A DNA stretch of 64,000 nt, taken from the NCBI GenBank assembly GCA_965204795.1, contig OZ242012.1, forward strand, positions 595,639-659,638, in the 5' to 3' direction. Every line of letters starts with the position of its first letter. The stretch's first letter is position 1. The DNA is from Thermodesulfobacteriota bacterium. GTDB taxonomy: Bacteria; Desulfobacterota_D; UBA1144; Nemesobacterales; Nemesobacteraceae. The notes below the pieces were generated by a model. It was not told where the DNA came from and made no database searches. It was given only the letters and a program-made list of their open reading frames with translations. The position numbers and the translations under genes were made by a program. Of this stretch, positions 3,001 to 59,069 are shown in pieces.

Positions 3001-3150
3001 ACCGAAAGAAAACTCAATCTGATTTCCAACTGCTTTCTGCGCTAGACGTTGATTTACGAGGTCGTCGGCACGGCCCAAGTCTTCCTTCTTAATTGAGGAC
3101 ACGGCCCAGTGGGCGTTGAGAAGATTGAAGTCTTCTTGGGAAAGGCTCAT
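1..3150 (-). CDS. Large SF2 DExH-box helicase (HamB-like candidate). C-terminal part lies beyond the left window edge, with over 1045 aa in the window.
   Basis: Reverse-strand translation from ATG (plus-strand cat at 3148-3150) is open to position 1. Motifs seen: ELPTSGGKT (Walker A), VVMDEAHNLE (DEAH), ATSTISQGINFP, AGRAGR (motif VI). The ORF track lists no minus ORF here because no stop occurs inside the window. Start overlaps the upstream gene's stop (ATGA). Confidence 0.8.
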   Translation of the reverse strand, partial: MSLSQEDFNLLNAHWAVSSIKKEDLGRADDLVNQRLAQKAVGNQIEFSFGPAEGDDTLLERVALAHEMAAVEGLEEISTASGGDDQLRKQAVAASYKAFNIYRTLQVPEETHERMFFVFRLSALAYCGDRWSDLRRWYNENHEALKVPSAAKAPWDFRLLYRLFDCWTRLFRKEGWDDLDRIREIVAGLRNDQKTYEKSCLVNGSENGAHSTALRLVAMYHWAKASETLAHYMLQGEPADIFSQVEKHFEAGIRAAAESGDIQHEIVLRWLHASSRIMVTNSLWWATRTVNSRTTDFVRSLTKRESHRSLFELLPPQRAALLEQGLLDQAKTAIVVELPTSGGKTLLAQFRILQALNQFADRGWVAYVAPTRALSSQITRRLRRDFEPINIKVEQLTAAVEVDAFEEQILTDGKSFDVLVATPEKLSLVIRNKKVERTLALVVMDEAHNLEAEGRGLRIELLLATVKQDCSQANFLLLMPYVDDIEPIARWLAQDINAGRAISLGTTTWKPNERIIGIYRAVKDDDERAGWRLEYETLTATEKAMPLCGNHFVGDVRPIPSVARSKVIDAKGDQKGFTTQTAAMAAVLSGRKSSNATSVAVTNRRDLAWKMARDVVQALPQYETVPDNVRLVQDFLKTEISPDFELVSMLSHGVGVHHAGLSDEVRSLIEWLAESGDIRVLCATSTISQGINFPVSSVFLASHLIPKNRSRPVPMEPREFWNLAGRAGRIDHDTVGVVGIAQGNSREEIVEFVKRNTGELVSRLVTLIDNLAEQGSLDNLSEVFWQDQWEDFRCYIAHLWAEKKNLEAVLSDSENILRQTYGYRCLRRDSRIEKAEALLKATKIYVHELAKMPHGVAELADSTGFSPESVRQAMKDLGNLEKGLSSSDWMPDKLFGDGGKIADLFGVMLNIKQIGQPLEKIAGSGFGNKRISEITLDWVEGKRLGDIAKEYFTQSENQLDTDALTKTCMAIYRAIVNNGTWGLSALRQVSGINFDQMSEQERFKINVLPAMVYHGVRSEDAVLMRMNSAPRSTAEALGTLYRNEFNGDKE

Positions 3151-16477: not shown

Positions 16478-16621
16478 GGTTTTGCCCGTTACTTCTCCGA
16501 TTCGCGAGTTCGAGCTTGCGGGCCGCTCCCGCGTCTTCATTTGCCTTGGTTGAACTTCCGCCTCGAGAAAGTCGGGGAAAACTTTACAAATTTGCATTTA
16601 TGTTCTATAATTGCAAACAAC

Positions 16622-17752
16622 ATGATAAAACGGACGGTTGAAAGCAGGCTTCTCCGCCTGGCGGGACAGTATCCCGTCGTTACGGTCACGGGGCCCAGGC
16701 AGTCGGGCAAGACGGTTTTATCCAGAAAATGCTTTCCGGAACATCTCTATCTCAATCTGGAGAAACCGGATACGCGCGAATACGCCAGGAAAGATCCCGT
16801 GGGCTTTCTCGCCCAGTCGGAGAAAATGGTTATAGACGAGGTTCAGCGCGTGCCCGACCTTGTTTCCTACGTTCAGGCCGCGGTCGATGAAAGCGGCGAA
16901 GCGGGACGGTTTATTCTGACCGGCAGTCATCAGTTCGGGCTGACCGAAGTGGTCTCCCAGTCGCTGGCGGGACGCACGGTGCTGATAACCCTGCTTCCGT
17001 TTTCACTGAGGGAGCTGGGAGATACATCTCCGTATGAAAACCTGATTTACAGGGGATTCTACCCTAGGATAATAGACAGGAAGCTGAACCCCACCGAGGC
17101 GCTTTCGTTCTACGTCGATACGTATGTCCGGAGAGATTTGAGAGAGATAAAGGAAATCAGGAACCTGAGCCGGTTCGAAGATTTTCTTCGGCTTTGCGCC
17201 GCCAGCGTGGGACAGATGCTCAACATGTCCCGCATGGCGAACGATGTCGGCGTCGCCGTAAATACCGTAAAGGCGTGGATTTCCGTTCTGGAAGCGAGCT
17301 ATGTTGTATATCTGCTCCGGCCGCATTACAGGAATTTCAGAAAAAGAATCGTGAAAACTCCCAAGCTTTACTTCTGCGACGTGGGACTTGCTTCTTATCT
17401 TCTGGACATAAAGAAGGTCGAGCACGTGAAGTCGCACCCGCTTCGGGGAATGCTTTTTGAAAATCTTGTCGTCGTGGAAAAAATCAAGCGGAAGTTCAAC
17501 AACGTCGAACGGCCTTCCCTGTATTTTTTCAGGGACAACACGGGCAACGAGGTCGATCTTCTGGAAGAAGAGGGAAGTCATGTTGTTTCCTACGAGATAA
17601 AAATGGCGAAGACCCTGGACTCGAACCAGTTCAGGGGGCTTAACTTCTACAGGAAGCTCAATCCCGAAAACAGCAGATCGGTTCTTGTTTACACGGGTTC
17701 CGAGAAGACAACCCGGTACGGGCACGAATGCCTGCCTTTCCGGCATGTCTGA
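16622..17752 (+). CDS. AAA+ ATPase of the COG1373 family (AAA_14 plus DUF4143-like C-terminus)
   Basis: Walker A TGPRQSGKT, Walker B MVIDEVQ, C-terminal YFFRDNTGNEVDLL motif. TATAAT-like element upstream. It sits on the left flank of a low-GC islet. Confidence 0.75.
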   Translation: MIKRTVESRLLRLAGQYPVVTVTGPRQSGKTVLSRKCFPEHLYLNLEKPDTREYARKDPVGFLAQSEKMVIDEVQRVPDLVSYVQAAVDESGEAGRFILTGSHQFGLTEVVSQSLAGRTVLITLLPFSLRELGDTSPYENLIYRGFYPRIIDRKLNPTEALSFYVDTYVRRDLREIKEIRNLSRFEDFLRLCAASVGQMLNMSRMANDVGVAVNTVKAWISVLEASYVVYLLRPHYRNFRKRIVKTPKLYFCDVGLASYLLDIKKVEHVKSHPLRGMLFENLVVVEKIKRKFNNVERPSLYFFRDNTGNEVDLLEEEGSHVVSYEIKMAKTLDSNQFRGLNFYRKLNPENSRSVLVYTGSEKTTRYGHECLPFRHV

Positions 17753-17909
17753 TATATACTAATCGGTTGAACCCAAGGTGCTTGAGACCCTGCTACGGTC
17801 TTTGTTTCTTGGCGGATCGCCCGCAGGCCCGGTATACGGGTTGTTCGGAAGAATAACGGCCTGAACGGTTTCTGGCCGAAGCCGTCGAGAATAACGAGGA
17901 GGATATGAG

Positions 17910-18281
17910 ATGGAAATGCCGGAGAAGTTTTCCTTTAGGGTTCTCGAAGAGAAAATTATCAGAAAGCTGTTTTACAAAAAGGATGTTATTAGGAAGCTGC
18001 TTTACAGGGAAGAAGGAGAATATGTAGCCCACTGCCTGGAGTTTGATCTGGTTAACACTTCAACGAGGTCGTTTGAAGAGGCTTCCGCGGAGTTGAATGA
18101 ATTGCTGGAAGACTATGTGAGTTACGCGTGCGAGTACAACGAGTTCCAAAATCTCTACAGGTTCGCTCCCGTTAAATACTGGATAATGCTTCAGTTCGGG
18201 ACGCGTCGCGAAGATTCCTCCGAACAAGAACATGTCAACGTCTGCGACATGACCTACAGAATTGAAACATCCGCCGTGTAG
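17910..18281 (+). CDS. HicB-like / UPF0150-like small protein (RNase H-like antitoxin-type fold); function uncertain
   Basis: 123 aa with EGEYVAHCLEFDLVNTSTRSFEEASAELNELLEDYV, resembling the HicB N-domain pattern. AGGAGGA SD 7 nt upstream. Low-GC DNA. Confidence 0.45.
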   Translation: MEMPEKFSFRVLEEKIIRKLFYKKDVIRKLLYREEGEYVAHCLEFDLVNTSTRSFEEASAELNELLEDYVSYACEYNEFQNLYRFAPVKYWIMLQFGTRREDSSEQEHVNVCDMTYRIETSAV

Positions 18282-18473
18282 ATGCGTCGGGCCGGAGGAC
18301 TCCGCCCGAAACGGAGTTTTCCGCATGTGTTGAGAGAAGCGGCGAGGCTCGGAAAAGATTTACTACGGGGGAAGGTAGAGTTAGAATAATCCAGAGTCTG
18401 TCTTTGCGGAACTTGACGGAACTGTCCAATTTCTGTCAGGGCTGCGGATTGCCGGAGAAGCGGCGGGGGAATT

Positions 18474-19625
18474 GTGAAAAAACACTTTTTCAGATCTCTT
18501 GAGATAGAGAATTTTCGCGGTATCAGAACCTCCAGAATCGACAACTTTGCGAGGGTCAATCTTTTTGTGGGCGAGAACAGCTGCGGAAAGACAACCATTC
18601 TGGAATCGCTGTTCCTTCTGGCGGCCATCCGGGACCCTAGCAGGATGGTTAACATTCAGAATTCCAGAGGAATATATCTTACGGAGCCCAGAGACTTGGC
18701 AGATTTCTTTTTCGAACAGAAGCATGAAAACAATCTGCGTTTAACCGGAACTCATGAATCCGGGAAGAGAGAACTGACAATCAACGCTTTATACAGAGAC
18801 TCGCGTGCTTCTCGAACAGACAGTCAGCAGGAAAATGGAAGCGGAAACAACCATATTCTCAAAGTAAACAACATGGATTCCAAAACGGATGACTGCCTGC
18901 TTGGATTGGGATACACATTCTCGGTTTCCTGCAACGGGGACGGGGGCCCCGACCAGCATAATTCCAAAGTTGTTGCGACTTGGAGCGGTTCTCCTGTCGA
19001 GAGGGCGAGATTCGAAACATATATTGACGAGAAATATAAAGAGAAATCTTTGAACAGCGTTGCCGTGATTAGAGGGTCAAAGGATTCATACGAACACCTT
19101 CCCGTTGACGGCATTGGTAAAATGCTTCAGGAAAAACGTAAAGATATTCTACTGGAAAGTCTTCAGAAGATTGATCCCAGAATCCAGGACATACAGGTCA
19201 GCACTGCAGGAGTTGTTCTCGCGGATATTGGAGTTAAAAGCTTCATTCCTTTGAATCTCCTGGGAGACGGATTGCTTCATATGGTCAATCTTGTTTCTCA
19301 TGTTGACGATACCAGGGGTGGAATTCTGATGATTGATGAATTCGGTTCGGGTTTTCATGTCTCCTGCGTTGAATACATCTGGAAAGTTCTCATAGAGCAG
19401 TCGGGAAAATACGACACACAGGTATTCATGACTACTCACAGCAAGGATGTGGTGGAAGGTCTGGCGGGCTTGCATGAACGGGAACCCGATCTTTTTTCCG
19501 AAGATGGGGACGACGTCGCGTGTTTTTATCTGGGGAAAAACAGCGAGGGTCGAGTGAAAGGATACAGATATTCTCCTGAGGATATAAAGCAAGTTCTGAA
19601 ATCAGACACAGATATTCGCCACTAA
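18474..19625 (+). CDS. OLD/PARIS-AriA-like ABC-type ATPase (AAA_15/AAA_21 family)
   Basis: GTG start. N-terminal LEIENFRGI, Walker A GENSCGKTT, Walker B ILMIDEFGSGFH, H-loop TTHS. 383 aa, low GC. Confidence 0.85.
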   Translation: MKKHFFRSLEIENFRGIRTSRIDNFARVNLFVGENSCGKTTILESLFLLAAIRDPSRMVNIQNSRGIYLTEPRDLADFFFEQKHENNLRLTGTHESGKRELTINALYRDSRASRTDSQQENGSGNNHILKVNNMDSKTDDCLLGLGYTFSVSCNGDGGPDQHNSKVVATWSGSPVERARFETYIDEKYKEKSLNSVAVIRGSKDSYEHLPVDGIGKMLQEKRKDILLESLQKIDPRIQDIQVSTAGVVLADIGVKSFIPLNLLGDGLLHMVNLVSHVDDTRGGILMIDEFGSGFHVSCVEYIWKVLIEQSGKYDTQVFMTTHSKDVVEGLAGLHEREPDLFSEDGDDVACFYLGKNSEGRVKGYRYSPEDIKQVLKSDTDIRH

Positions 19626-19626
19626 A

Positions 19627-20226
19627 ATGTCTCAGAAAGTGTGTATTTTTGTTGAAGGGAAGGAGGATTCTAATTTCCTGGAATCCTACGTTGGTTATCT
19701 GGGCTATGAACTGCCGGAAATAAGACCCATAGGCGGGAAAGACAATCTTAAAGGGAATCGTCTGGAGATTGCCAAAAAATTAGATGAAGAAGACGCAAGG
19801 GTGCTGATTGTATTTGACGCCGATGATGATTATGGGAAGACGAAAGATGAGGCAAAGAGAACTATCCAAGACAAGGTGCAGGTAAACGACGGAAATTCCC
19901 GTCTGGATTTTTTTCTTTTCCCCAACAATCAGGACTCGGGAAACCTGGAAGACCTGCTCGAAAAAATCATAAAGTCCGAACACAAGGGTATCTTTGATTG
20001 TTTTGAAGCCTACAAGGAATGTCTGACGGAGCGGGACCCTTCTTACCTCCATCCGGACAAGAAGGCTAAAATTTATACATACAAGCAATCTCTGGGAGCA
20101 GTGAGAGAAGGGAGAGAATATCATTTCAGTCCGAAATACTGGGAATTCGAGAACAGTTCTCTCGACCCGCTGAAAAGTTTTCTTTGCGAGAATTTTCGCA
20201 AGAGCGGTCTGGAAAAAGTACGATAG
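19627..20226 (+). CDS. Small Toprim-like protein (DUF4276/DUF4435-like by recollection), putative nuclease partner of the ATPase
   Basis: 199 aa. ATG is 1 nt after the ATPase TAA. Toprim-like acidic motifs CIFVEGKEDSNFL (conserved E) and LIVFDADDD (DxD). Confidence 0.6.
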   Translation: MSQKVCIFVEGKEDSNFLESYVGYLGYELPEIRPIGGKDNLKGNRLEIAKKLDEEDARVLIVFDADDDYGKTKDEAKRTIQDKVQVNDGNSRLDFFLFPNNQDSGNLEDLLEKIIKSEHKGIFDCFEAYKECLTERDPSYLHPDKKAKIYTYKQSLGAVREGREYHFSPKYWEFENSSLDPLKSFLCENFRKSGLEKVR

Positions 20227-20284
20227 AACTAAAAATTCATCTTCAAAGTCTCCGGCGGAGAGTCCCACTCTGCGAGGCGGGAAA

Positions 20285-20635
20285 ATGATACGGGTAACAG
20301 ACGAGATGCTTCGAGACATGGTGAAAGTCATAGTGGATGAAGTCGACCCCGAGCAGGTGATACTCTTCGGTTCACATGCCCGCGGCGACGCGTCCGCGGA
20401 CTCGGACGTGGATTTTGTCGTTATTGAATCGTCTCCGTTCGGAGCGGGCAGGGACCGGCGTCTTGAAGCTGCGCGTCTGTGGCGCGCGCTGGCGGATTTT
20501 GACGTTCCAAAGGACATTCTGCTGTACAGCGGCGACGAAGCTGAGTACTGGCGCGACTCTATCAACCATGTCCTCGCGCGCGCACTTCGCGAGGGGAAAA
20601 TTCTCTACGAGAGACCTTCAACCGATGAGGCTTAA
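20285..20635 (+). CDS. Nucleotidyltransferase (MNT/Pol-beta superfamily) domain protein
   Basis: GSHARGDASADSDVDFVVI motif, 116 aa. Its 3' end overlaps the rluB-like start by 12 nt. Confidence 0.8.
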   Translation: MIRVTDEMLRDMVKVIVDEVDPEQVILFGSHARGDASADSDVDFVVIESSPFGAGRDRRLEAARLWRALADFDVPKDILLYSGDEAEYWRDSINHVLARALREGKILYERPSTDEA

Positions 20636-21998: not shown

Positions 21999-22481
21999 TC
22001 AGTCGAAGTCCTTCGTTTTCTCCAGAAGCTCCTCCGCTCTTGGATACATGTAGACCTGCAGTATGACGCCGATTGCGGAAAACGGCGCTATCGCCCAGGG
22101 GTCCTTGCTTATGAACGCGAGCACGAACCCCAGCAGCAGCACGCATTCGTTCATTCCCCAGGGAACCACGTGGGGCAGAAGGAGGCCGTCGGAGAACTCC
22201 TCGAGTCTTTTTTCGGGCGAAAGTCCCCGGGTCGCGGCGAACTTCTTTCGAAGCGATTTTTCCGAAAGAGAAAACCTGTATACGAAAAGGGAGCCCGCGC
22301 CCAGCAGGATTCCGCCCGCGAGAAGGGCGGTTTTCACGGTTTCGCCGAGGGCGGGACGGTCCGCCTCGAACAGAAACACGGTCGCCGTGTACGCGAACAT
22401 GGCCAGCAGAAGCGCGAGCCAGACTATCACGAGGGCGCGCTGGTTTTTTTGCGCGAACGGCCTTCGGTTCTTGCGGTCCAT
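21999..22481 (-). CDS. Hypothetical integral membrane protein (4 predicted TM helices)
   Basis: 160 aa, hydrophobic segments; convergent with tmk. Confidence 0.5.
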   Translation of the reverse strand: MDRKNRRPFAQKNQRALVIVWLALLLAMFAYTATVFLFEADRPALGETVKTALLAGGILLGAGSLFVYRFSLSEKSLRKKFAATRGLSPEKRLEEFSDGLLLPHVVPWGMNECVLLLGFVLAFISKDPWAIAPFSAIGVILQVYMYPRAEELLEKTKDFD

Positions 22482-22510
22482 GGTCCGGGGCGGGGGGACG
22501 GGTACCGTTG

Positions 22511-22843
22511 TCAGGAAGTGATCTTCGCGAAAATAACGCTCAGCACTATGAGCGCCGCGAAAATCCCCATCATGTAGAAAGGAACGGTGGGGTCGTATCC
22601 TTTCTTTATGTTGGGAACCCTTTTCTGGGACCAGATCACGGGAGACTTTTCCGGTTCCCCGGGTGCTTCGGCCTCCCGCGAGGAGACCTGCTCCCGCGGC
22701 TGTTCCGCGGTTTCCGCCTCCCGGGCGGACGCTTCCTCCGCGACCGTCTCCTGCGTTTTCTCTTCTTCGGTCTCCGCCATCTCGGTGGTCTCCTCGGCGA
22801 TGCTTCGGTAGGAAATTATCACGCAGGGAGAGGAGAAAATCAA
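22511..22843 (-). CDS. Small acidic protein with C-terminal TM anchor; hypothetical (start uncertain)
   Basis: Glu/Ala-rich N-terminal region, C-terminal MMGIFAALIVLSVIFAKI. Confidence 0.4.
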   Translation of the reverse strand: MIFSSPCVIISYRSIAEETTEMAETEEEKTQETVAEEASAREAETAEQPREQVSSREAEAPGEPEKSPVIWSQKRVPNIKKGYDPTVPFYMMGIFAALIVLSVIFAKITS

Positions 22844-22881
22844 GCTTTCTCCGCGACCCGCACTTCGCGGGTCCGCGTTTC

Positions 22882-22910
22882 TTGAAAAGCCGGGGGCGTG
22901 TATTTATAAT
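22882..22910 (+). promoter_or_regulatory. Sigma70-like promoter for the rhodanese/Suf cluster
   Basis: TTGAAA, 17-nt spacer, TATAAT, located 57 nt upstream of the sseA-like ATG. Confidence 0.5.
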
Positions 22911-22966
22911 TACTCCACACTAAAGAGGCCGCCCGTGCATCGCGGCCGAACGGAGGTTTCATACCT

Positions 22967-23809
22967 ATGGCGGATTACGCTAACCCGGATGTTCTTGTGA
23001 GCACCGACTGGGTGGAGAAGCATATCGACGACCCCGGCGTCGTCATCGTCGAGTCCGACGAGGACATACTTCTCTACGAGATAGGACACATAAGGAATTC
23101 TGTGAAATTCGACTGGCAGACGGAACTTCAGGACCAGCTCGTTAGGGATTACGTGAGCAGGGAGAACTTCGAGGAGCTGCTTTCCGAAAAGGGAATATCC
23201 AACGACCACACCGTCGTCTTCTACGGGGACAGGAGCAACTGGTGGGCGTGCTACGCCTTCTGGACGTTCAAGGTCCTGGGACACGAAAAGTGCCTCGTAA
23301 TGAACGGAGGCAGGCAGAAATGGATCGACGAGGGAAGGGAGCTTGTGAAGGACGTTCCGAAAAGACCGAGAACCGATTACAGGGTCTCCGCGATCGACGA
23401 GTCCATAAGGGCGTTTCGCGACGACGTCATGGAGCACATGAAATCGAAAAGACCTCTCGTCGACGTGCGCTCCCCCAAGGAGTACTCGGGAGAGCTTCTC
23501 CACATGGAGGCCTATCCCCAGGAGGGCGCCCTCCGCGGGGGGCACATCCCGGGAGCGGTCAACGTTCCCTGGGCCACCGCGGCCAACGAGGACGGAACGT
23601 TCAAGTCCGCCGACGAGCTCTCCGAAATATACGAAAAGGGCCAGGGGCTCGGCAGAGACGACGACGTGATAGCCTACTGCAGGATAGGGGAGCGCTCTTC
23701 CCACACGTGGTTCGTTCTCACCTATCTTCTGGGATTCGAAAACGTCAGGAACTACGACGGTTCGTGGACGGAGTGGGGAAACATGGTGAGAGCTCCAGTG
23801 GAGAGGTAG
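22967..23809 (+). CDS. sseA: Thiosulfate/3-mercaptopyruvate sulfurtransferase (tandem rhodanese domains)
   Basis: Two rhodanese domains, active-site loop CRIGERS, 280 aa. Confidence 0.85.
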
Positions 23810-23845
23810 GGAGGAGGCGCGTTTTTCATGCGGAAAAGAAGGATG

Positions 23846-23874
23846 CGGTCTTTCGGGGCGCGTCCTTTTTTTTT
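23846..23874 (+). terminator. Possible intrinsic terminator after the rhodanese gene
   Basis: Imperfect 9-bp stem (aaggatgcg / cgcgtcctt) followed by T9. Confidence 0.35.
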
Positions 23875-23888
23875 GAGACCGGGGCGAC

Positions 23889-24317
23889 ATGACCAGGCTT
23901 GAGAAAATAGTCGGGGAATTTCGGGAAGCGGACCGCCAGGGGATGATCGAGCTTCTGCGGGACTACTCCGAGGACCTGCCCGAGGTTCCGGGGAGGATTC
24001 TCGAGCGGATGGACCGCGACTCGAGCAGGGTGCACGAGTGCGAGACTCCCGTTTTCATATGGGTCGAGACCGAAAACGGTGCCGTCCGGATATTCGCCGA
24101 CGTTCCCGGGCCAGATTTTCCCACCGTGAAGGGACTCGTTTCGATTCTCGTAAACGCGTTCGACGGTCTTTCTCCCGGGGAGATCGAGGCCGCCCCCGCC
24201 GACTTCATCTCCAGCATGGGGCTCGTCGAGCTGCTCGGAATGAGAAGGATATGGGGAATTTCCGCCGTCTACTCGAGGATAAGGGACGAGGTGAAGAGGA
24301 TAAGGAAAGAGCCGTGA
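23889..24317 (+). CDS. sufE: SufE-like sulfur acceptor protein
   Basis: 142 aa with VHECETPVFIW (conserved Cys loop of the SufE/CsdE family). Confidence 0.65.
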   Translation: MTRLEKIVGEFREADRQGMIELLRDYSEDLPEVPGRILERMDRDSSRVHECETPVFIWVETENGAVRIFADVPGPDFPTVKGLVSILVNAFDGLSPGEIEAAPADFISSMGLVELLGMRRIWGISAVYSRIRDEVKRIRKEP

Positions 24318-24331
24318 TCGAGGAAGAGAGG

Positions 24332-24700
24332 ATGAACGTGATCATGGACCACTACGACAACCCGAGGAACTTCGGGGCGATGGACGACCCCACGGTTACG
24401 CTTCGGGGAGGCAACCCCAACTGCGGCGACAGCATAAACATCTACATGAGGGTGGCGGGCGGCGTGATAGAAGACATAAGTTTCGACGGAAAGGGATGCA
24501 TCATAAGCCAGGCGACGACGTCGCTTCTCTCGGAGTTCGTCAAGGGAAAGACGGTGGAGCGCGTGGGGGAGCTCGATTCGGACTACCTGAGGGAGCTTGT
24601 GGGAAAGGAGGTTCTGGTCACGAGGCCCAGGTGCAGCCGCCTCGCGCTTGAAACGCTCCTGTCGTGGACAAGGGAATTTTTCGCGGGAAAACCCGTCTGA
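24332..24700 (+). CDS. NifU/IscU/SufU-family Fe-S scaffold protein
   Basis: HYDNPRNFG...NPNCGD...DGKGCIISQA, three conserved Cys. ATG start with GGAAGAGAGG SD. The longer listed ORF (from 24038) overlaps sufE. Confidence 0.7.
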   Translation: MNVIMDHYDNPRNFGAMDDPTVTLRGGNPNCGDSINIYMRVAGGVIEDISFDGKGCIISQATTSLLSEFVKGKTVERVGELDSDYLRELVGKEVLVTRPRCSRLALETLLSWTREFFAGKPV

Positions 24701-24751
24701 TTTTGGTTATACTTAAGGCATCTGTTTAACGAAGACAAAGGAGACTCAAGG

Positions 24752-26086
24752 ATGAAAAACGGCAGACCCGACGAACTGGTTCTCGGCGAAAGGCTCGAGG
24801 AAGCGCTCAAGTACCCTCTTTTCGATTCCATATTCAACAGGCGTTCGAGAAGATTCGGACTGGGAATGGAGCTCAAGGACAGCACCCTCGAATTCAAGTC
24901 GGACTACGACCCCGTGCCGCTGAGCGAAATCGAGGAAGCGCTTCTGGTGTGGGCGGGCACGGGACTCACCGGAATGTGCCTCGCCGACCTTCCTCCCGAA
25001 AACGGAATAGACCTTCTCTGCCAGTGGACGGGAAGAACGTGGCCGTCCGCGTGCAACAACCACGGCACGGAGCTTTTCTTCACGAACGACGAGGGTCTGT
25101 ACCACGTGGACGTTAAGAACATGCTTCCGAAGGAAAGCGAGCTCGACATGTTCTTCAGCCTCTCGCGCGAGGAGAAGATCGCCAGGGTCCTTGAGCTCTA
25201 CAGGGAGAGTCTCAACAAGCTCGAGGACGGAAGGGCGGACATGCCCGACAAGATGCCGGGACTTTTCGAGTTCAACCAGTGGAACACCAACAAGCCCGGA
25301 ACCACGCTTTTCGTTCCCGTCACGGACGTAACCGAGGAGTATCTTAACCTTCTCACCCTCTACTGCTCCCACAGCTACGGGTTCACGATCATAGACGACC
25401 TCACGGGCAAGCCCGCGGGAGTGGGGAAATGGGTGGAGAAGGGAAGGCTAAAGGACGAGATCAAGCTCTCGCTCTTCGACCTCGAGGTGAGAATACTCAC
25501 GGGACTGAACGTCGAGCAGGCGTTCATAACGCAGAACATGGCCCTGGCCCTCCAGCCCCTGGGACTGGCCGGATGGGCGTTTACGGGCTTCATACCGAGG
25601 TTCGCGATGGGAGCGGCCCCGAACCTTTTCAAGGGACTCGGATTCCGTTTCATCCAGCCGAAAAAGGGCAGCATAGATCCTCCCACCACGGTTCCCGTCG
25701 GCAAGGACGGGGTGTTCGAGGCGTACTGTCCTCCCTACTACGAGAACATGGACTCGGCCATCGACCATTTCCTGGCCCACAAGTGGAAGGCGTGGGAATC
25801 CGACAAGCCTTTTCCGTACACCGAGCCCGACAGGCATCTCATGAAGGCCCCGAGACCGACGGACACCACCATACAGATCGTGAAGGACGTGGCAAACTAC
25901 ATCTACGACACCTACGGCAGGTTCCCCGCCTTCGTGGACCCCATGTACATGAGGCTCGTGTTCCAGGCCATGCACATAGACCTCGACTTCTACGACAAGT
26001 ACTATCCGAAGGGTTCGTATTCGGACAGGCACGTGAGAACCTTTCTTGAGAATCACCCGGACCAGGCGGAGCGGTTCGGAGAATAG
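24752..26086 (+). CDS. Uncharacterised 444-aa protein with nitroreductase-superfamily-like N-terminal signature
   Basis: Strong AGGAG SD. FNRRSRRFGLG and LVWAGTGLTG resemble the nitroreductase/SagB-like RRSxRxF and dimer-helix motifs. No other recognisable domain. Confidence 0.5.
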   Translation: MKNGRPDELVLGERLEEALKYPLFDSIFNRRSRRFGLGMELKDSTLEFKSDYDPVPLSEIEEALLVWAGTGLTGMCLADLPPENGIDLLCQWTGRTWPSACNNHGTELFFTNDEGLYHVDVKNMLPKESELDMFFSLSREEKIARVLELYRESLNKLEDGRADMPDKMPGLFEFNQWNTNKPGTTLFVPVTDVTEEYLNLLTLYCSHSYGFTIIDDLTGKPAGVGKWVEKGRLKDEIKLSLFDLEVRILTGLNVEQAFITQNMALALQPLGLAGWAFTGFIPRFAMGAAPNLFKGLGFRFIQPKKGSIDPPTTVPVGKDGVFEAYCPPYYENMDSAIDHFLAHKWKAWESDKPFPYTEPDRHLMKAPRPTDTTIQIVKDVANYIYDTYGRFPAFVDPMYMRLVFQAMHIDLDFYDKYYPKGSYSDRHVRTFLENHPDQAERFGE

Positions 26087-26141
26087 AGACCCTCGGGACG
26101 GGAAACCGAAAGCGTCTTCCGCGGTCGGGGGCGGAACTGCC

Positions 26142-27416
26142 ATGCGGGTAGCGATCATAGGAAACGGCGTAACCGGGGTTTCGGCGGCCCTCGGCGTCCG
26201 CAGGCTGCGTCCCGACTGGGAAATCGTCATGATTTCCGGAGAATCCGCCTTCCACTACTCTCGCCCCGCGCTCATGTACATATTCATGGGCCACATGAGC
26301 TACCGCGACACCAAGCCCTACGAAGACGGTTTCTGGCGAAAGAACCGCATCGGCCTCGTGCGGGGATGGGTCGAGAGAATAGACGCGGCCGCGAAGAAAC
26401 TCGTCATGCATAAAGGCGAGCCCGTTTCCTTCGACAGGCTGCTCATCGCCACGGGCTCGAAGCCCAACATGTTCGGCTGGCCCGGCCAGGACCTGGGGGG
26501 CGTGCAGGGTTTCTACGGCCTGATGGACCTCAGGCTTCTTTACGAAAACGTGAAGGGCGCCCGAAGCGCAGTGGTGGTTGGCGGGGGACTGATAGGAATC
26601 GAGCTTGCCGAGATGCTGCATTCGCGAAACATCCGCGTCACGTTCCTGGTGAGGGAAAAGTCCTACTGGTCGAACGTCCTTCCTCCCGAGGAATCGCGGA
26701 TGATAAACAACGTGATACGGGAGCAGGGAATAGACCTCAGGCTCCAAACCGAGCTTTCCGAAATAGTCGACGACGGTTCGGGAAGGGCGAAGGGGGTGGT
26801 CACCGGCTCGGGCGAGTTTGTCGAATGCCAGGTGGTCGGACTCACCGCCGGGGTCAGTCCCAACGTGTCCCTGGCCAGGGACGCGGGCGTGGGAACCGCC
26901 AGGGGAATTCTGGTCGACCGGAGTTTCAGGACGGACGTTCCCGACGTGTTCGCCGCCGGGGACTGCGCGGAGATAGTCTCGGAAGGAGAGGGCGGAAATC
27001 TCATTCAGCAGGTGTGGTACACGGGAAAGGCCCAGGGCGCGGTCGCCGGAGAGGCGATCGCCGGAGAGAAGGTGGTCTACGACCCGGGCGTATGGTACAA
27101 CTCGGCCAAGTTTTTCGATCTCGAGTACCAGACCTACGGAACGGTCCCGAGCTCGCCCTCGGAAGGGGAAAGCGTCTTTTACTGGGAGCATCCCGACGGG
27201 CGGCGCTCTATAAGGATGGTGACCAGGGAAGGGGCTCTTTCGGGCGTAAACGTCATGGGTCTTCGCTACAGGCACAGGGTGTGCGAGAGCTGGGTGGCCG
27301 AGGGACGGTCCCTCGACTACGTGCTCGGCAATCTCTCGGAGGCCAATTTCGATCCCGAGTTCTACGAGAGATGCGAAGAGGAAATGGTAAGGGAGATAAG
27401 GAGACAGGCCGCGTGA
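26142..27416 (+). CDS. FAD/NAD(P)-dependent pyridine nucleotide-disulfide-family oxidoreductase
   Basis: N-terminal Rossmann fold VAIIGNGVTGVSAA and second dinucleotide fold AVVVGGGLIGIELAE; FAAGDCAE near the C-terminus. Confidence 0.8.
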   Translation: MRVAIIGNGVTGVSAALGVRRLRPDWEIVMISGESAFHYSRPALMYIFMGHMSYRDTKPYEDGFWRKNRIGLVRGWVERIDAAAKKLVMHKGEPVSFDRLLIATGSKPNMFGWPGQDLGGVQGFYGLMDLRLLYENVKGARSAVVVGGGLIGIELAEMLHSRNIRVTFLVREKSYWSNVLPPEESRMINNVIREQGIDLRLQTELSEIVDDGSGRAKGVVTGSGEFVECQVVGLTAGVSPNVSLARDAGVGTARGILVDRSFRTDVPDVFAAGDCAEIVSEGEGGNLIQQVWYTGKAQGAVAGEAIAGEKVVYDPGVWYNSAKFFDLEYQTYGTVPSSPSEGESVFYWEHPDGRRSIRMVTREGALSGVNVMGLRYRHRVCESWVAEGRSLDYVLGNLSEANFDPEFYERCEEEMVREIRRQAA

Positions 27417-28807
27417 TGGAAGCGGACGCGCCGACTTACGACTTCGACGAGGAAGGTCTTGGATTCGGCGAGCCCGAAAAGGCTCCCGCCCCCGCCCTGG
27501 GGACGGGCGAGAAGCTTTCCCTGGCGTTCGTGGGACTCGGGACGCTCATGTTCGCGCTTCAGACCCTGGGAGCCCCGATCGGGGGCTGGACGGGGTTTCT
27601 GGCGGTGGTGGTTCCGGTCTTTGCGGGCGCCTCGGCCTACTTCTACCTTAGCTTCAGGGACACCGTCCCCGGGATAAAGCACGACGGCGTGTATTTCAGG
27701 GGGATAACTTCGCGGGGAGCCCTAGGCTGGATCGTGGGCGTCGTGTTCACGGGCTTCTACATTGCCATCTACTGGTTTCCCGAGTACCTGGCGGGGGGCA
27801 TAGAGATGGTGAACCCGCTTTCCATGGCCCTTTCGGGCTCTCCGGCCACGAACTGGTTTTTCTACGGCTTTCTCTACACCGTCGCCGTGTTCGTCTTCGG
27901 CGTCAGGATGTTCATGAAGTACAGGCACAACGGGTACCAGAAGATAAGAACGGCTTCGGTGATGTTCTTCCAGCTGGGCTTCGCCTTTCTCATTCCCAAC
28001 GTCCTCATGATGTTCAACCAGCCGGAGTTCTACCTGAGCTACTTCTGGCCGCTCAAGTACGACTATCTTTTCCCCGGCACCTTCGGGTATTTCGTGAATC
28101 ATCCCGGCGGTCTCGGCGTGTTTCTCATCTTCTGGGGAGCCGTCATGTCTTTTGTGGGAACGCCGCTTCTCACCTATTATTTCGGCAAGAGGTGGTACTG
28201 CTCCTGGGTGTGCGGCTGCGGGGGCCTCGCGGAAACGATGGGGGACCCCTGGAGACATCTCTCGGACAAGTCGAAAAAGGCGTGGCGGGTCGAACGCTGG
28301 ATGGTGCACTCGGTGCTGGTTTTCGTGGTCGTCACGACCGTTCTTCTGTGGATCAATTCGGCCAGCTCGGGCGCGGTGTTCGGCGAGGCGTCCATGTCCC
28401 TCAAGAAATGGTACGGTTTCTACATCGGGGCGATTTTTTCGGGAGTCATAGGCGTCGGTTTCTACCCGATAATGGGAAGCAGGGTGTGGTGCCGGTTCGG
28501 CTGTCCGATGGCCGCCGTGCTGGGAATCTTCCAGAGGTATCTCTCGAGGTTTCGCATTACGACGAACGGCGGACAGTGCATGTCCTGCGGGAACTGCTCG
28601 ACCTACTGCGAGATGGGCATAGACGTGAGGGCCTACGCCCAGAAGGGGGAAAACATAATCCGCGCGTCCTGCGTGGGGTGCGGGGTCTGTTCGGCCGTGT
28701 GTCCTAGGGGAGTGCTCAAGCTTGAAAACGGGGGAACCTTCAAGGACAGGTTCGCGGGGTCGGACAGGCCGCTGGGCGCCCTGATAGAATCGTTAAGACA
28801 CGTTTAG
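27416..28807 (+). CDS. Integral membrane polyferredoxin (NapH/RdxA/FixG-like 4Fe-4S protein)
   Basis: ATGA overlap with the upstream gene. Multiple TM helices. CSWVCGCGG, CRFGCPMAAV, CMSCGNCSTYCE, CVGCGVCSAVCP ferredoxin-type motifs. Confidence 0.75.
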   Translation: MEADAPTYDFDEEGLGFGEPEKAPAPALGTGEKLSLAFVGLGTLMFALQTLGAPIGGWTGFLAVVVPVFAGASAYFYLSFRDTVPGIKHDGVYFRGITSRGALGWIVGVVFTGFYIAIYWFPEYLAGGIEMVNPLSMALSGSPATNWFFYGFLYTVAVFVFGVRMFMKYRHNGYQKIRTASVMFFQLGFAFLIPNVLMMFNQPEFYLSYFWPLKYDYLFPGTFGYFVNHPGGLGVFLIFWGAVMSFVGTPLLTYYFGKRWYCSWVCGCGGLAETMGDPWRHLSDKSKKAWRVERWMVHSVLVFVVVTTVLLWINSASSGAVFGEASMSLKKWYGFYIGAIFSGVIGVGFYPIMGSRVWCRFGCPMAAVLGIFQRYLSRFRITTNGGQCMSCGNCSTYCEMGIDVRAYAQKGENIIRASCVGCGVCSAVCPRGVLKLENGGTFKDRFAGSDRPLGALIESLRHV

Positions 28808-28859
28808 TTCAAAAACAGACGCTTTCCGCATTTTAACGTATGGAGCGACGCTGGAAACC

Positions 28860-29309
28860 TCAGATGTTCAAAAACTCCACGCACTCCAGGCTTTCTTTTT
28901 TCCCCTTGTCCGTTCTTTCGAGTATCTCTCCGTTTTTTATGTCGAAGATGAAGGCCGATATTCCCGAAATTATCTCGAGATTGAACTCCATGAAGTTGTT
29001 CACGTATATCCTGGAATCCTCGAGTACTTCCTTCGGGTCCGCGTCCTCGGGGTCCTTCACCAGTATGAAATAGGCGCAGAGAAAGTCGGGCAGGTCGGGA
29101 TTGTGGGCGAACACCGCCTTGGAGTCGTACTTGAGAATCACGTTCTGGTTGAAGTAGCGCTGGTATCCCGCTATGAGCGGCTGGTTGAGATGAGACAGCG
29201 CGTAGACGATCGCGCACGTTATCCTGTTCTGGTTCTCGAGCATGAAATCCAGGGCTTCCTTGTTGAACTGCTCAAGGCTCTTTTTCATTTCGTCGCTGCT
29301 TCGCGGCAT
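28860..29309 (-). CDS. Hypothetical protein (149 aa) in a local low-GC patch
   Basis: Perfect GAAGGAGG SD 6 nt upstream of the ATG. No recognisable motifs. Confidence 0.6.
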   Translation of the reverse strand: MPRSSDEMKKSLEQFNKEALDFMLENQNRITCAIVYALSHLNQPLIAGYQRYFNQNVILKYDSKAVFAHNPDLPDFLCAYFILVKDPEDADPKEVLEDSRIYVNNFMEFNLEIISGISAFIFDIKNGEILERTDKGKKESLECVEFLNI

Positions 29310-29400
29310 GACAATCCTCCTTCGTGAATTTTTCCGTTAGTCGGACAGCGCCCGCCCGGGATTCGGGATGTAATATACCACAACCCGCCCGCCGGGCGTC

Positions 29401-32274: not shown

Positions 32275-33183
32275 ATGTGGCGATCTGGCGGGAAAATGGA
32301 ATTCGGAAAACTTAAGACATTGATTCGCAAAGAATCAAAAAGCGATGACAAGACCTTTGATGAATCTTCAGCCCGTATTCAGGAGAAGATATTTGCCTTG
32401 TCAAAGAAGCAGACAGTTCCGCTGTTGAAAAATATAGGAATTATTCCGGAATCGATTCATCATGATTCATCTGAGGAAAAATTGTTTGCCAAAGTTGCCG
32501 ATATTCTTTTAGCCAAGGCATTTCAGGAACTTGGACTTTCCGCGAATGTAAACGACGAACGTGCGAATTGCGCGGATGTGGTCGCGAAGAGTAAAATTCA
32601 TAAATATTCACTGGTCGCCGACGCCAAGGCGTTCCGCCTCAGCAGGACTGCGAAGAATCAGAAAGATTTTAAGGTTAAGTCTATGGTAGACTGGAAAGGC
32701 AGGCACGATTATTCGGTCTTGGTCTGTCCCTTCTATCAATATCCCAGGAATAGAAGCCAGATTTACGGTCAAGCCCTTGATGGAAACGTATGTCTTCTCA
32801 GCTGGGAACATCTGGTTCTTTTTCTGGAAAACAACATCAAAGAAACAAAAAGGCTCTCTCTTCGAAAATTGTGGAACATCAGCGACGAATTGTCGTCAAA
32901 AGTCACCGTGAAAAACAAGGACAGGAATACAAACTTTCATCAGGATGGTAACTTGCTGATACAAAAACATGTTGGATTAAAGGAAGATATTTTCGGCAGC
33001 GTGTTTGAATTATGTAGAAAAGTAACAGTTGCGCGAGGCAGGTCCGAGATTAAATTCTGGAAAAGCGAAATAGACAGAATAAATGGATTCACCAGGAAAC
33101 AAGCCATAACGGAACTATTGGACTCTATGAAAATCGGGAAAAAGATTTCCACTATTCAGAAATATATTGACTCACTAGCATAG
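32275..33183 (+). CDS. Candidate Type II restriction endonuclease (PD-(D/E)xK-like)
   Basis: 302 aa in a low-GC islet, immediately upstream of a DNA MTase. D-x(15)-VADAK arrangement (D...(D/E)xK). Confidence 0.5.
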   Translation: MWRSGGKMEFGKLKTLIRKESKSDDKTFDESSARIQEKIFALSKKQTVPLLKNIGIIPESIHHDSSEEKLFAKVADILLAKAFQELGLSANVNDERANCADVVAKSKIHKYSLVADAKAFRLSRTAKNQKDFKVKSMVDWKGRHDYSVLVCPFYQYPRNRSQIYGQALDGNVCLLSWEHLVLFLENNIKETKRLSLRKLWNISDELSSKVTVKNKDRNTNFHQDGNLLIQKHVGLKEDIFGSVFELCRKVTVARGRSEIKFWKSEIDRINGFTRKQAITELLDSMKIGKKISTIQKYIDSLA

Positions 33184-33192
33184 GAATCAAGC

Positions 33193-34149
33193 GTGAAATT
33201 CAAAGACAAGATAAACACCGTGATAAATGCCGACAGCATAGAAGAACTGGACTTGTTTCCCGATGAAAGCGTACACCTTATCCTGAGCGACATCCCCTAC
33301 GGTATTGGAGTTGATGAATGGGACGTGCTTCACGAAAACACAAATTCGGCATACCTGGGCAACAGTCCCGCCCAGCAGAAAGCGGGACCCGTATTCAAAA
33401 AGAGAGGCAAACCATTAAACGGATGGTCGGAAGCGGACAGACAGATACCGAGGCAATATTACGACTGGTGCATGAAATGGACGGCAAAATGGCTTCGCGT
33501 GCTGAAGCCCGGGGGCAGCGCGGTTGTATTTGCGGGAAGAAGGTTTGTCCATCGTTGCATCTGCGCTTTTGAGGACGCGGGTTTCACTTACAAAGACATG
33601 ATTGCGTGGCACAAGGAAAAAGCTCCGCACAGGGCACAGAGGATTTCCGTTGTTTACGAGAAAAGAGGCGACGAGTTTAACAGGGAAAGATGGGAAGGCT
33701 GGAGAGTCGGGAACCTGAGGCCGGTTTTCGAACCAATACTCTGGTTTTCCAAGCCGTACGCCATTGGCGGAACGATCGCTGATAACATGCTGGAACACGA
33801 AACAGGCGCGTTTAACGAAAAGGGTTTCCTGAAATATACGCATGCTCCCGACAACTGCATCTCCGTTGCCGCTGCAAAAAACGATACGGGTTTGCATCCA
33901 ACGCAGAAACCCCTGAAACTGATGAACGCGCTGATTGAGCTGACGACGAACGAAGACCACGTTGTACTCGACCCTTTCTGTGGAAGTGGTTCAACACTGG
34001 TTTCCGCTTACAATCTCGGGCGAAAGTTCATTGGAATTGAATCGGAGAAAACTTATTACGAGATTGCTTTTGAAAGAATTCGTTCAGTTGCCGACAACTT
34101 TGAACGCTCCCTCTTTAGCGAGATGCAGTTGCACGACCATGATTTCTGA
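33193..34149 (+). CDS. Beta-class DNA amino-methyltransferase (N6-adenine or N4-cytosine)
   Basis: Motif IV SDIPYG near the N-terminus and motif I VLDPFCGSGST near the C-terminus (circularly permuted beta order). 318 aa, low GC. Confidence 0.85.
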   Translation: MKFKDKINTVINADSIEELDLFPDESVHLILSDIPYGIGVDEWDVLHENTNSAYLGNSPAQQKAGPVFKKRGKPLNGWSEADRQIPRQYYDWCMKWTAKWLRVLKPGGSAVVFAGRRFVHRCICAFEDAGFTYKDMIAWHKEKAPHRAQRISVVYEKRGDEFNRERWEGWRVGNLRPVFEPILWFSKPYAIGGTIADNMLEHETGAFNEKGFLKYTHAPDNCISVAAAKNDTGLHPTQKPLKLMNALIELTTNEDHVVLDPFCGSGSTLVSAYNLGRKFIGIESEKTYYEIAFERIRSVADNFERSLFSEMQLHDHDF

Positions 34150-59044: not shown

Positions 59045-59069
59045 TTGTATGTTCCGCGGGAGTCGCCGG

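Follow-up and report, generated by a model that had tools for sequence, protein, structure and literature searches.

A Dadabacteria rhodanese-SufE-SufU locus that may be a mosaic of three separately conserved redox and iron-sulfur units

We analysed a stretch of 64,000 nucleotides from a Thermodesulfobacteriota bacterium (assembly GCA_965204795.1, contig OZ242012.1, positions 595,639 to 659,638 of the forward strand; hereafter the window), in which six genes of the plus strand, located at 22967-28807, code for a tandem rhodanese (Rhd), a SufE protein, a short SufU-like protein, a 444-residue protein of an uncharacterised family (X), an FAD-binding oxidoreductase (FADox) and a membrane polyferredoxin (PolyFd). 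A first-pass annotation had read these six co-directional genes as one uncharacterised sulfur-trafficking and redox operon. The gene identities proposed there were borne out by the calling of open reading frames (ORFs), by domain matches and by homologue searches, each of the six ORFs having strong homologues. The genes are the following:

22967-23809, plus strand: rhd, SseA/CysA-type tandem-rhodanese sulfurtransferase of 280 residues, two stretches of which match Pfam Rhodanese.
23889-24317, plus strand: sufE, stand-alone SufE-family sulfur acceptor of 142 residues, Pfam SufE at 70.2 bits against a cut-off of 27.
24314-24700, plus strand: sufU-like, short SufU/NifU_N protein of 128 residues, NifU_N at 85 bits.
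24752-26086, plus strand: X, uncharacterised family with a predicted nitroreductase-like fold, 444 residues, invariant RRSRRFG at residues 30-36.
26142-27416, plus strand: FADox, FAD/NAD(P)-binding oxidoreductase of 424 residues, Pyr_redox_2 at 167 bits and also a Pyr_redox match.
27416-28807, plus strand: PolyFd, membrane iron-sulfur protein of 463 residues, Fer4_5 and C-terminal 2x[4Fe-4S] dicluster Pfam matches.

The gaps between consecutive genes, from rhd to PolyFd, were 79, -4, 51, 55 and -1 nucleotides. The sufU gene likely starts at the GTG 24314 and not at the ATG 24332, because its homologues are 128-129 residues long, and this GTG overlaps the stop codon of sufE as GTGA. The last two genes had been described as overlapping by ATGA; they share instead a single nucleotide (TGATG), or GTGA with a GTG start. 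Two long minus-strand ORFs, at 22910-23890 and 25839-27275, were considered as genes and taken as high-GC artefacts, because plus-strand genes with strong homologues oppose them and the GC content at the third codon positions of X is 0.80. The nearest genome locus, with an X protein 96% identical to that of the window, was found in a metagenome-assembled genome labelled Thermodesulfobacteriota / Candidatus Dadabacteria. SufBCD and SufS had been noted as missing from the cluster: no SufS or IscS homologue was found across the whole 64-kb window, and no suf gene was seen adjoining the cluster, SufBCD not having been the object of a specific search.

The signals around and between the six genes, which bear directly on whether they form one transcription unit, are given below.

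22882-22910, plus strand: sigma-70-type promoter-like site upstream of rhd (TTGAAA, 17-nucleotide spacer, TATAAT), 11 of 12 positions matching.
22927-22947, plus strand: hairpin in the 5' untranslated region of rhd, immediately 5' of the Shine-Dalgarno sequence GGAGG (22952-22956).
23834-23874, plus strand: intrinsic terminator or attenuator within the 79-nucleotide rhd-sufE gap, composed of an A-tract, a GC hairpin (23841-23865) and T9.
24708-24713, plus strand: -10-like box TATACT, candidate promoter of X from conservation, 39 nucleotides upstream of the X start codon.
26090-26131, plus strand: hairpin without T-run between X and FADox, minimum free energy (MFE) -18.2 kcal/mol, no better than shuffled sequence.

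The consensus-like sigma-70 promoter reported ahead of the cluster was confirmed, and the arrangement CTTGAAAA...TATAAT/TATACT is kept in about 24 relatives. Just 5' of it, a terminator-like hairpin (22855-22873) closes off the preceding region. The stem GGCCGC/GCGGCC of the rhd 5' untranslated region is maintained, with a few two-sided (compensatory) changes, in 18 relatives; the loci of a marine clade also have a hairpin in the equivalent position. Relatives also carry stems of other sequence at the position equivalent to that of the X-FADox hairpin. An Rfam scan of 22400-29400 at E <= 1 gave no credible RNA family.

The element between rhd and sufE has all the features of a canonical intrinsic terminator and, judged on sequence, is a conserved one. 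Its MFE is -30.7 kcal/mol (z = -2.4), and a hairpin followed by T8-13 was present in 24/24 aligned sequences (the window and 23 relatives). The stems vary in sequence and still pair, as in GGATGCGG/CCGCATCC, GGACGCG/CGCGTCC and GGGTGCAA/TTGCACC, with two-sided compensatory changes at 3 of the 12 pairs. We observed also that the element looks bidirectional. Its T-run stops 15 nucleotides before the ATG of sufE, and sufE-sufU would therefore be expressed only by read-through or from an overlapping promoter; the terminator may act as an attenuator that sets the ratio of rhd to sufE-sufU. In nearly all Dadabacteria loci, among them a marine Rhd-SufU-X clade in which the surrounding sequence is otherwise unrelated, the ATG of X is preceded at 35-40 nucleotides by a TATAAT or TATACT box, often with TGn in front of it. 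This conservation makes the box a candidate promoter of X. A single operon would be expected to lack internal terminators and promoters, and the cluster contains a terminator at 23834-23874 and a promoter-like box at 24708-24713, which splits it in the way that the first-pass annotation had itself named as arguing against its proposal.

Conservation of the gene order was then assessed by tblastn with the window proteins and ORF clustering in 160 X-containing loci, 80 from genomes (X 70-96% identical) and 80 from metagenomes. The following arrangements were found:

Full six-gene order: L001-L025 (with exceptions such as L010), L027, L031 and L142, with X 84-96% identical.
Minus-strand genes (Na+/solute symporter, ComEA-like) between sufU and X: L027, L029 and L031.
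Rhd-SufE-SufU-X without FADox-PolyFd: L029 and L030.
X-FADox-PolyFd without Rhd or Suf genes: L010, L057, L067, L068, L072 and L168.
Rhd-SufU-X without SufE, then a convergent acyl-CoA ligase gene: marine loci L073-L080 and L153-L165.
X alone between anti-sigma/extracytoplasmic function (ECF) sigma genes and IHF, def, pgk, tpi and secG: about 30 loci.

Over these 160 loci the six-gene order is confined to a crown clade of close relatives with X at least 84% identical, and the units separate elsewhere, so that the co-conservation expected of one operon was not observed. In a neighbour-joining tree of X, Rhd-SufU-X occurs in a basal marine clade and in the crown clade and is absent from the clades between them; in L044, L047, L127 and L131 the three genes are loosened to 1-3 kb. 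A third SufU-type adjacency was seen in L071 (7852-11332), where X is divergent from a sufU-sufS pair, the only such pair seen. The Rhd-SufU-X association therefore recurs in several Dadabacteria arrangements and the six-gene order does not. Within Dadabacteria, the Rhd-SufU-X linkage may plausibly be ancestral.

Taken together, the gene order and the internal signals argue, at about even odds (probability roughly 0.5), that the locus is a mosaic of three separately conserved redox and iron-sulfur maintenance units, rhd with sufE-sufU, X, and FADox-PolyFd, which became juxtaposed in one Dadabacteria clade. Of the operon first proposed, the gene identities stand; the internal terminator, the -10 box and the lack of wide co-conservation speak against a single transcription unit.

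In the first unit, Rhd is by domains and similarity an SseA/CysA-type tandem rhodanese. It scored 398 bits to the Thermus thermophilus rhodanese 1uar, 360 to SseA (3hzu) and 339 to 3aax, and fell below the NCBIfam equivalog for 3-mercaptopyruvate sulfurtransferase (119 against 250 bits). The catalytic cysteine C238 lies in the CRIGERS loop of the C-terminal domain and, from reading of the sequence, the N-terminal domain has no cysteine in the equivalent loop (YGDRSNWWA). A 15-residue segment of Rhd aligned without gaps to 1uar, 8k55 and a Tsukamurella sulfurtransferase. SufE has a single cysteine, Cys51, in the motif HECETP; its best PDB match is the T. thermophilus SufE 1wlo, with which it has HEC(E/Q)TP in common, and the SufE/CsdE equivalog models gave 21-26 bits, far under their cut-offs. 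The SufU-like protein carries the ligands C37, D39, C62 and C107, the last in RPRCS and with no histidine before it. It reached 91.0 bits with TIGR01994 for a cut-off of 92.5, matching profile positions 7-89 of 137. Homologues of this short SufU above about 50% identity are confined to Dadabacteria/Thermodesulfobacteriota, and canonical SufU proteins (147-151 residues) are 40-46% identical to it, which is consistent with the short SufU being a lineage-specific addition to Rhd-SufE.

A close counterpart of the Rhd-SufE pair has been described in Mycobacterium tuberculosis, where the product of the neighbouring gene, Rv3284 (SufE_Mtb), binds SseA (Rv3283) at a 1:1 ratio and activates it; Rv3284 is located outside the suf operon and has retained its persulfide cysteine (PMC12375888). 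In that study, the thiosulfate:cyanide sulfurtransferase activity of the M. tuberculosis protein was stimulated by its SufE partner, the pair was tied to oxidative stress resistance, and the authors deemed the pairing unique to Mycobacteria (PMC12375888, 2025). On a replicon of Tsukamurella, a member of the Mycobacteriales, we found also a sulfurtransferase-SufE pair with a 4-nucleotide overlap, the proteins being 56% and 35% identical to the window Rhd and SufE. As in these systems, the window has a tandem-rhodanese gene directly upstream of a stand-alone sufE with a conserved cysteine, outside a suf operon; the neighbour of sufE is a rhodanese gene, as for Rv3284, and no cysteine desulfurase gene adjoins it. 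From this likeness, Rhd-SufE would be a new instance of the described two-protein system, and the statement that the arrangement is not a described pathway is thus only partly right. The window differs in having a conserved terminator between the two genes instead of a 4-nucleotide overlap and a short SufU translationally coupled to SufE, and marine Dadabacteria carry Rhd-SufU without SufE. A literature search on Dadabacteria with rhodanese returned nothing relevant.

Compared with the SufS-SufE relay of E. coli and the SufS-SufU relay of B. subtilis, the window proteins have retained Cys51 of SufE and the three cysteines and the aspartate of SufU, and are likely persulfide acceptors or carriers. 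Unlike in these relays, SufE and SufU occur together, with no SufS or IscS in the window; both proteins are below all equivalog cut-offs and SufU is about 20 residues shorter. The reading of Rhd, SufE and SufU as a persulfide relay is accordingly kept as plausible, here without an adjacent cysteine desulfurase. Such a sulfane-sulfur relay, independent of a cysteine desulfurase, would begin with a persulfide formed on C238 of Rhd from thiosulfate or another sulfane donor. SufE would bind and activate the rhodanese and take the sulfur on C51, by analogy with SseA-Rv3284, and would pass it to the coupled short SufU, which probably supplies iron-sulfur cluster repair or other sulfur trafficking. 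With the terminator in place, rhd would be the main transcript and sufE-sufU would be reached by read-through.

The second unit is X, for which no Pfam or NCBIfam match was found. A word-indexed search gave 2318 homologues at E <= 0.001, and the family comprises 1712 representatives of 50%-identity clusters, with no Pfam domain, informative name or curated model among them. The AlphaFold2 model of X (predicted local distance difference test, pLDDT, 74; predicted template modelling score 0.80) was compared to the PDB with Foldseek, and the best matches were the FMN nitroreductases 3hoi, 3hj9 and 8cqs (E = 3e-3 to 1e-2, target-normalised template modelling score 0.47-0.59); nitroreductases made up the top 5 matches and most of the top 50. 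The earlier description of X as nitroreductase-like may thus hold at the fold level (Foldseek E = 3e-3) and not at that of sequence profiles, which match nothing: the X profile had no match among PDB sequences, and an hhalign comparison with one bona fide nitroreductase sequence gave nothing. A Pfam scan of distant relatives returned one faint nitroreductase match (16.6 bits against a cut-off of 23.5) and one MpaB/Lcp fusion. In the latter protein (P0184, 863 residues), an N-terminal MpaB/Lcp-type oxygenase domain is fused to the X domain.

The core conserved throughout the family includes RRSRR (30-34), G94-R95, D113, R161, N175, P182-G183, D215, N262 and G271-L272. The RRSRR motif presumably stands where nitroreductases bind the FMN phosphate. 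Cys101 is invariant only in the Dadabacteria group and in the group of its paralogue; as a family-wide persulfide-accepting catalytic cysteine it was rejected, since 77 distant representatives have mainly Asp (32), Cys (22) or Ala (10) at this position. X resembles the FMN-dependent nitroreductases (NfsB-like; 3hoi, 3hj9, 8cqs) in being matched best by their structures and in its N-terminal Arg/Ser-rich motif, and differs from them in being twice as long and in matching neither PF00881 nor any PDB chain sequence. On the strength of the model, X is probably an FMN flavin oxidoreductase of nitroreductase fold.

The genes around other members of the family give some indication of its partners. 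A paralogue 55% identical to X was found in other Thermodesulfobacteriota (L083 and L094-L116, for example L095, 7357-9299). Of about 28 paralogue loci with enough upstream DNA, 13 have a Fur-family gene as the immediate upstream neighbour in the same orientation, and two others have one at a distance of up to 2 kb; the best NCBIfam match of this gene is PerR. An OsmC-like gene is located a few genes downstream in another subset of the paralogue loci. An element TGTGTAAT(C/T)CTAT is conserved in the intergenic region, and no Fur or PerR box was seen by eye upstream of X or of the paralogue. On Firmicutes-like contigs (L081, 4837-7952; L091, 6190-9317; L146), two genes for DUF2148 ferredoxin-domain proteins lie directly upstream of X, in a catabolic-looking cluster that contains two acetoacetate-decarboxylase-family genes, a thiolase plus DUF35, a MaoC dehydratase, a CoA ligase (acyl-CoA-ligase), a TRAP transporter, a sigma-54 MimR-like activator and an electron transfer flavoprotein with an Hdr-like membrane protein; a literature search on DUF2148 returned nothing relevant. 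In other loci, tandem X-X genes are followed by genes for an AMP-binding enzyme and a solute symporter. The position of the paralogue behind a PerR-like gene or near OsmC, and that of relatives beside ferredoxin-domain proteins, points to a stress-linked reductase with iron-sulfur partners. X would then work, from its own -10 box, with iron-sulfur proteins as electron donors, often in a setting linked to stress.

In the third unit, FADox belongs at the family level to the ferredoxin/rubredoxin-NAD(P)+ reductase type (HcaD, AndAa, NorW, AorC), as judged from profile and PDB comparisons. Its best NCBIfam models (HcaD, AndAa, NirB and NorW) were all matched far under their cut-offs. Its best PDB matches were AorC (8c0z_E, the FAD subunit of the aldehyde oxidoreductase AorABC), 1xhc (NADH oxidase/nitrite reductase) and rubredoxin and ferredoxin reductases. 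The CoADR models gave 120-135 bits against cut-offs of 458-579. In seven orthologues from several phyla, which are about 60% identical, the only invariant cysteines are C230, C276 (GDCAE) and C382 in the numbering of alignment A3, which carries an additional residue at its start; they correspond to C229, C275 and C381 of the 424-residue protein. In the same orthologues there is no redox-active cysteine and no CxxxxC motif, and the CoADR/NOX site reads HYSRPALMY. FADox is thus a pyridine-nucleotide disulfide-family flavoprotein as first described, being of the Pyr_redox_2 family, and the action on a persulfide or thiol attributed to it is unlikely because of the missing redox cysteine and of best matches that are ferredoxin/rubredoxin reductases and AorC.

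PolyFd has eight hydrophobic, predicted transmembrane segments by hydropathy, and its 13 cysteines all fall within CSWVCGC, WCRFGCP and two CxxCxxCxxxC motifs, in agreement with the multi-spanning protein with four ferredoxin-type cysteine motifs seen in the first annotation. These thirteen cysteines are invariant in 12 sequences from different groups. The NapH/MauN model was matched at 53.9 bits for a cut-off of 213. Homologues of PolyFd are numerous (at least 8000 scored candidates), and the best 120, at least 57% identical, carry source labels that include Dadabacteria, Krumholzibacteriia, Planctomycetota, Zixibacteria, Myxococcota, Acidobacteriota and Eisenbacteria.

FADox and PolyFd travel together beyond the X loci. 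The FADox gene was directly upstream of PolyFd in 6/6 outside contexts, a 3.1-Mb relative and five loci of which three are labelled Krumholzibacteriia, Planctomycetota and Acidobacteriota, with an overlap of 1-4 nucleotides or, in L175, a gap of 7 nucleotides. The flanks of these six contexts are unrelated, with no X, rhodanese or Suf gene nearby. The 3.1-Mb relative has FADox-PolyFd-PriA-GlnE without X, and PriA-GlnE also follows the pair in L027, L031 and L068. Unannotated genes upstream of the pair in Krumholzibacteriia and Planctomycetota were considered as X relatives and set aside, profile comparison with the X alignment giving no relationship. The two genes thus form a genuine autonomous, translationally coupled electron-transfer pair. 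As a side observation, the pair is strongly conserved (about 60% identity) and always bicistronic (L087-L089, L092 and L173-L175), and occurs in many bacterial phyla.

The closest described relatives of the pair are AorC-AorA and the NapH-type membrane ferredoxins. AorC docks on the polyferredoxin subunit AorA. FADox is nearest to the FAD subunits of AorABC (8c0z) and of the reductases 1xhc, 3fg2 and 3lxd, which mediate the exchange of electrons of NAD(P)H with iron-sulfur or rubredoxin partners, and like AorC it is paired with a multi-cluster ferredoxin-type protein. The pair differs from AorC-AorA in that the partner is a membrane protein with eight transmembrane segments, in that no conserved catalytic third subunit adjoins it, and in that the identity of FADox is established at the family level only (130 bits). 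With the NapH/MauN/NosR-type membrane ferredoxins (NapGH), PolyFd shares cytoplasmic CX3C-type motifs after the transmembrane helices and a C-terminal 2x[4Fe-4S] domain; it has eight rather than four transmembrane segments, no NapG/NapAB and no flavin-binding periplasmic domain, and its partner is an NAD(P)H flavoprotein. A literature search on NapH-like proteins with a pyridine nucleotide-disulfide oxidoreductase returned nothing relevant. The likely path of electrons in this self-contained pair would run from NAD(P)H to FAD and on to the [4Fe-4S] clusters of the membrane protein, and PolyFd may hand them to quinone, as in NapH.

Several observations weigh against a mosaic of three units. The terminator could work as a regulated attenuator, and a single transcript might then still cover the six genes in certain conditions; the 15 nucleotides that separate its T-run from sufE showed no space for a promoter. 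A consensus promoter scan missed the -10 box of X, and no -35 element could be recognised with it. The fold assignment of X is weak (E = 3e-3, query-normalised template modelling score about 0.26, pLDDT below 50 at residues 74-103), and its link to stress leans on a PerR-like match of 144 bits against a curated cut-off of 180, and the gene is missing from about half of the paralogue loci. The retention of Rhd-SufU-X in one phylum-level lineage could also reflect inherited synteny rather than function.

Two other explanations were weighed against the same data. If the six genes form one integrated pathway, the sulfane sulfur carried by Rhd, SufE and SufU would be reduced by X with electrons passing from NAD(P)H through FADox and PolyFd to X, which would amount to an NAD(P)H-driven conversion of thiosulfate to sulfide or iron-sulfur clusters without a cysteine desulfurase. 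The co-direction and short gaps of the genes behind one strong promoter and the translational coupling of sufE/sufU and FADox/PolyFd fit such a pathway, as do the three arrangements in which X adjoins SufU-type genes, the invariance of C101 in the Dadabacteria and paralogue groups, and the presence of X beside iron-sulfur proteins in two unrelated lineages (PolyFd here, two DUF2148 proteins in the Firmicutes-like contigs). It is nevertheless improbable in view of the internal terminator, the -10 box before X and the absence of co-conservation beyond close relatives. Moreover, FADox-PolyFd is autonomous in six other contexts and FADox has no thiol-active cysteine, C101 is replaced by Asp, Ala or Gly in most distant members of the X family, and X paralogues occur without adjacent sulfur-relay genes, for example behind perR or in the catabolic cluster. 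A related proposal, which we regard as a long shot, is that the Dadabacteria Rhd/SufE/SufU proteins feed sulfane sulfur from thiosulfate to X, or cooperate with it, X being a new flavin-dependent persulfide/ferric reductase that in the window clade would receive electrons from NAD(P)H by way of FADox and PolyFd, the whole serving a desulfurase-free supply or repair of iron-sulfur clusters under oxidative stress.

At the opposite end, the adjacency could be a coincidence of tight packing in a small streamlined genome, bringing together an SseA-SufE pair for cyanide or sulfane-sulfur detoxification, a flavoenzyme and a membrane redox pair, each unrelated to the rest, with Rhd-SufU-X as inherited synteny and no functional relation between the units. 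The cluster is flanked by the unrelated housekeeping genes tmk, rluB-like and RNase Y, each unit has its own punctuation, the neighbours of distant X homologues are quite different, and in about 30 related loci X stands between the anti-sigma/ECF sigma genes and IHF, def, pgk and tpi. This explanation appears rather unlikely to us, since the Rhd-SufU-X order is kept between the marine and crown clades while the outer flanks wholly differ, X stands divergent beside sufU-sufS in an independent arrangement, and an iron-sulfur, redox or stress theme is common to all units. For the mosaic of three units, the gene identities, the terminator, the -10 box and the neighbourhood patterns are observed, and the chemistry, the direction in which sulfur and electrons flow and any cooperation between the units are inferred.

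The locus extends the SseA-SufE pair, recently called a mycobacterial peculiarity, to a phylum-level lineage without cultured members; Thermus thermophilus also provides the best PDB match of Rhd and that of SufE. The coupled SufU hints that the rhodanese system feeds sulfur trafficking beyond cyanide detoxification alone. Two conserved families deserve experiments: X, for its 1712 clusters at 50% identity and its PerR and iron-sulfur links, and FADox-PolyFd, which may be an NAD(P)H-linked membrane redox module and merits a study of its own. A tidy co-directional cluster in a streamlined genome needs a check of its neighbourhoods and terminators before it is read as one pathway.

Elsewhere in the window, a low-GC island (about 46%) at 16541-20635 codes for a DUF4143/AAA_14 ATPase, an AAA_15/AAA_21 ATPase, a DUF3226 protein, the gene of which begins 1 nucleotide after that of the AAA_15/AAA_21 ATPase, and a nucleotidyltransferase; the island resembles mobile cargo of the defence or toxin-antitoxin kind. 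A second low-GC island, at 32275-34149, is a type II restriction-modification system, in which the gene of a HindIII-type restriction endonuclease (222 bits) precedes that of an N6/N4 DNA methylase. Both ends of the window carry long ORFs that extend past it, one of more than 1050 residues on the minus strand at 1-3150 and one of more than 1650 residues on the plus strand at 59049-64000, the latter with a signal-peptide-like start.

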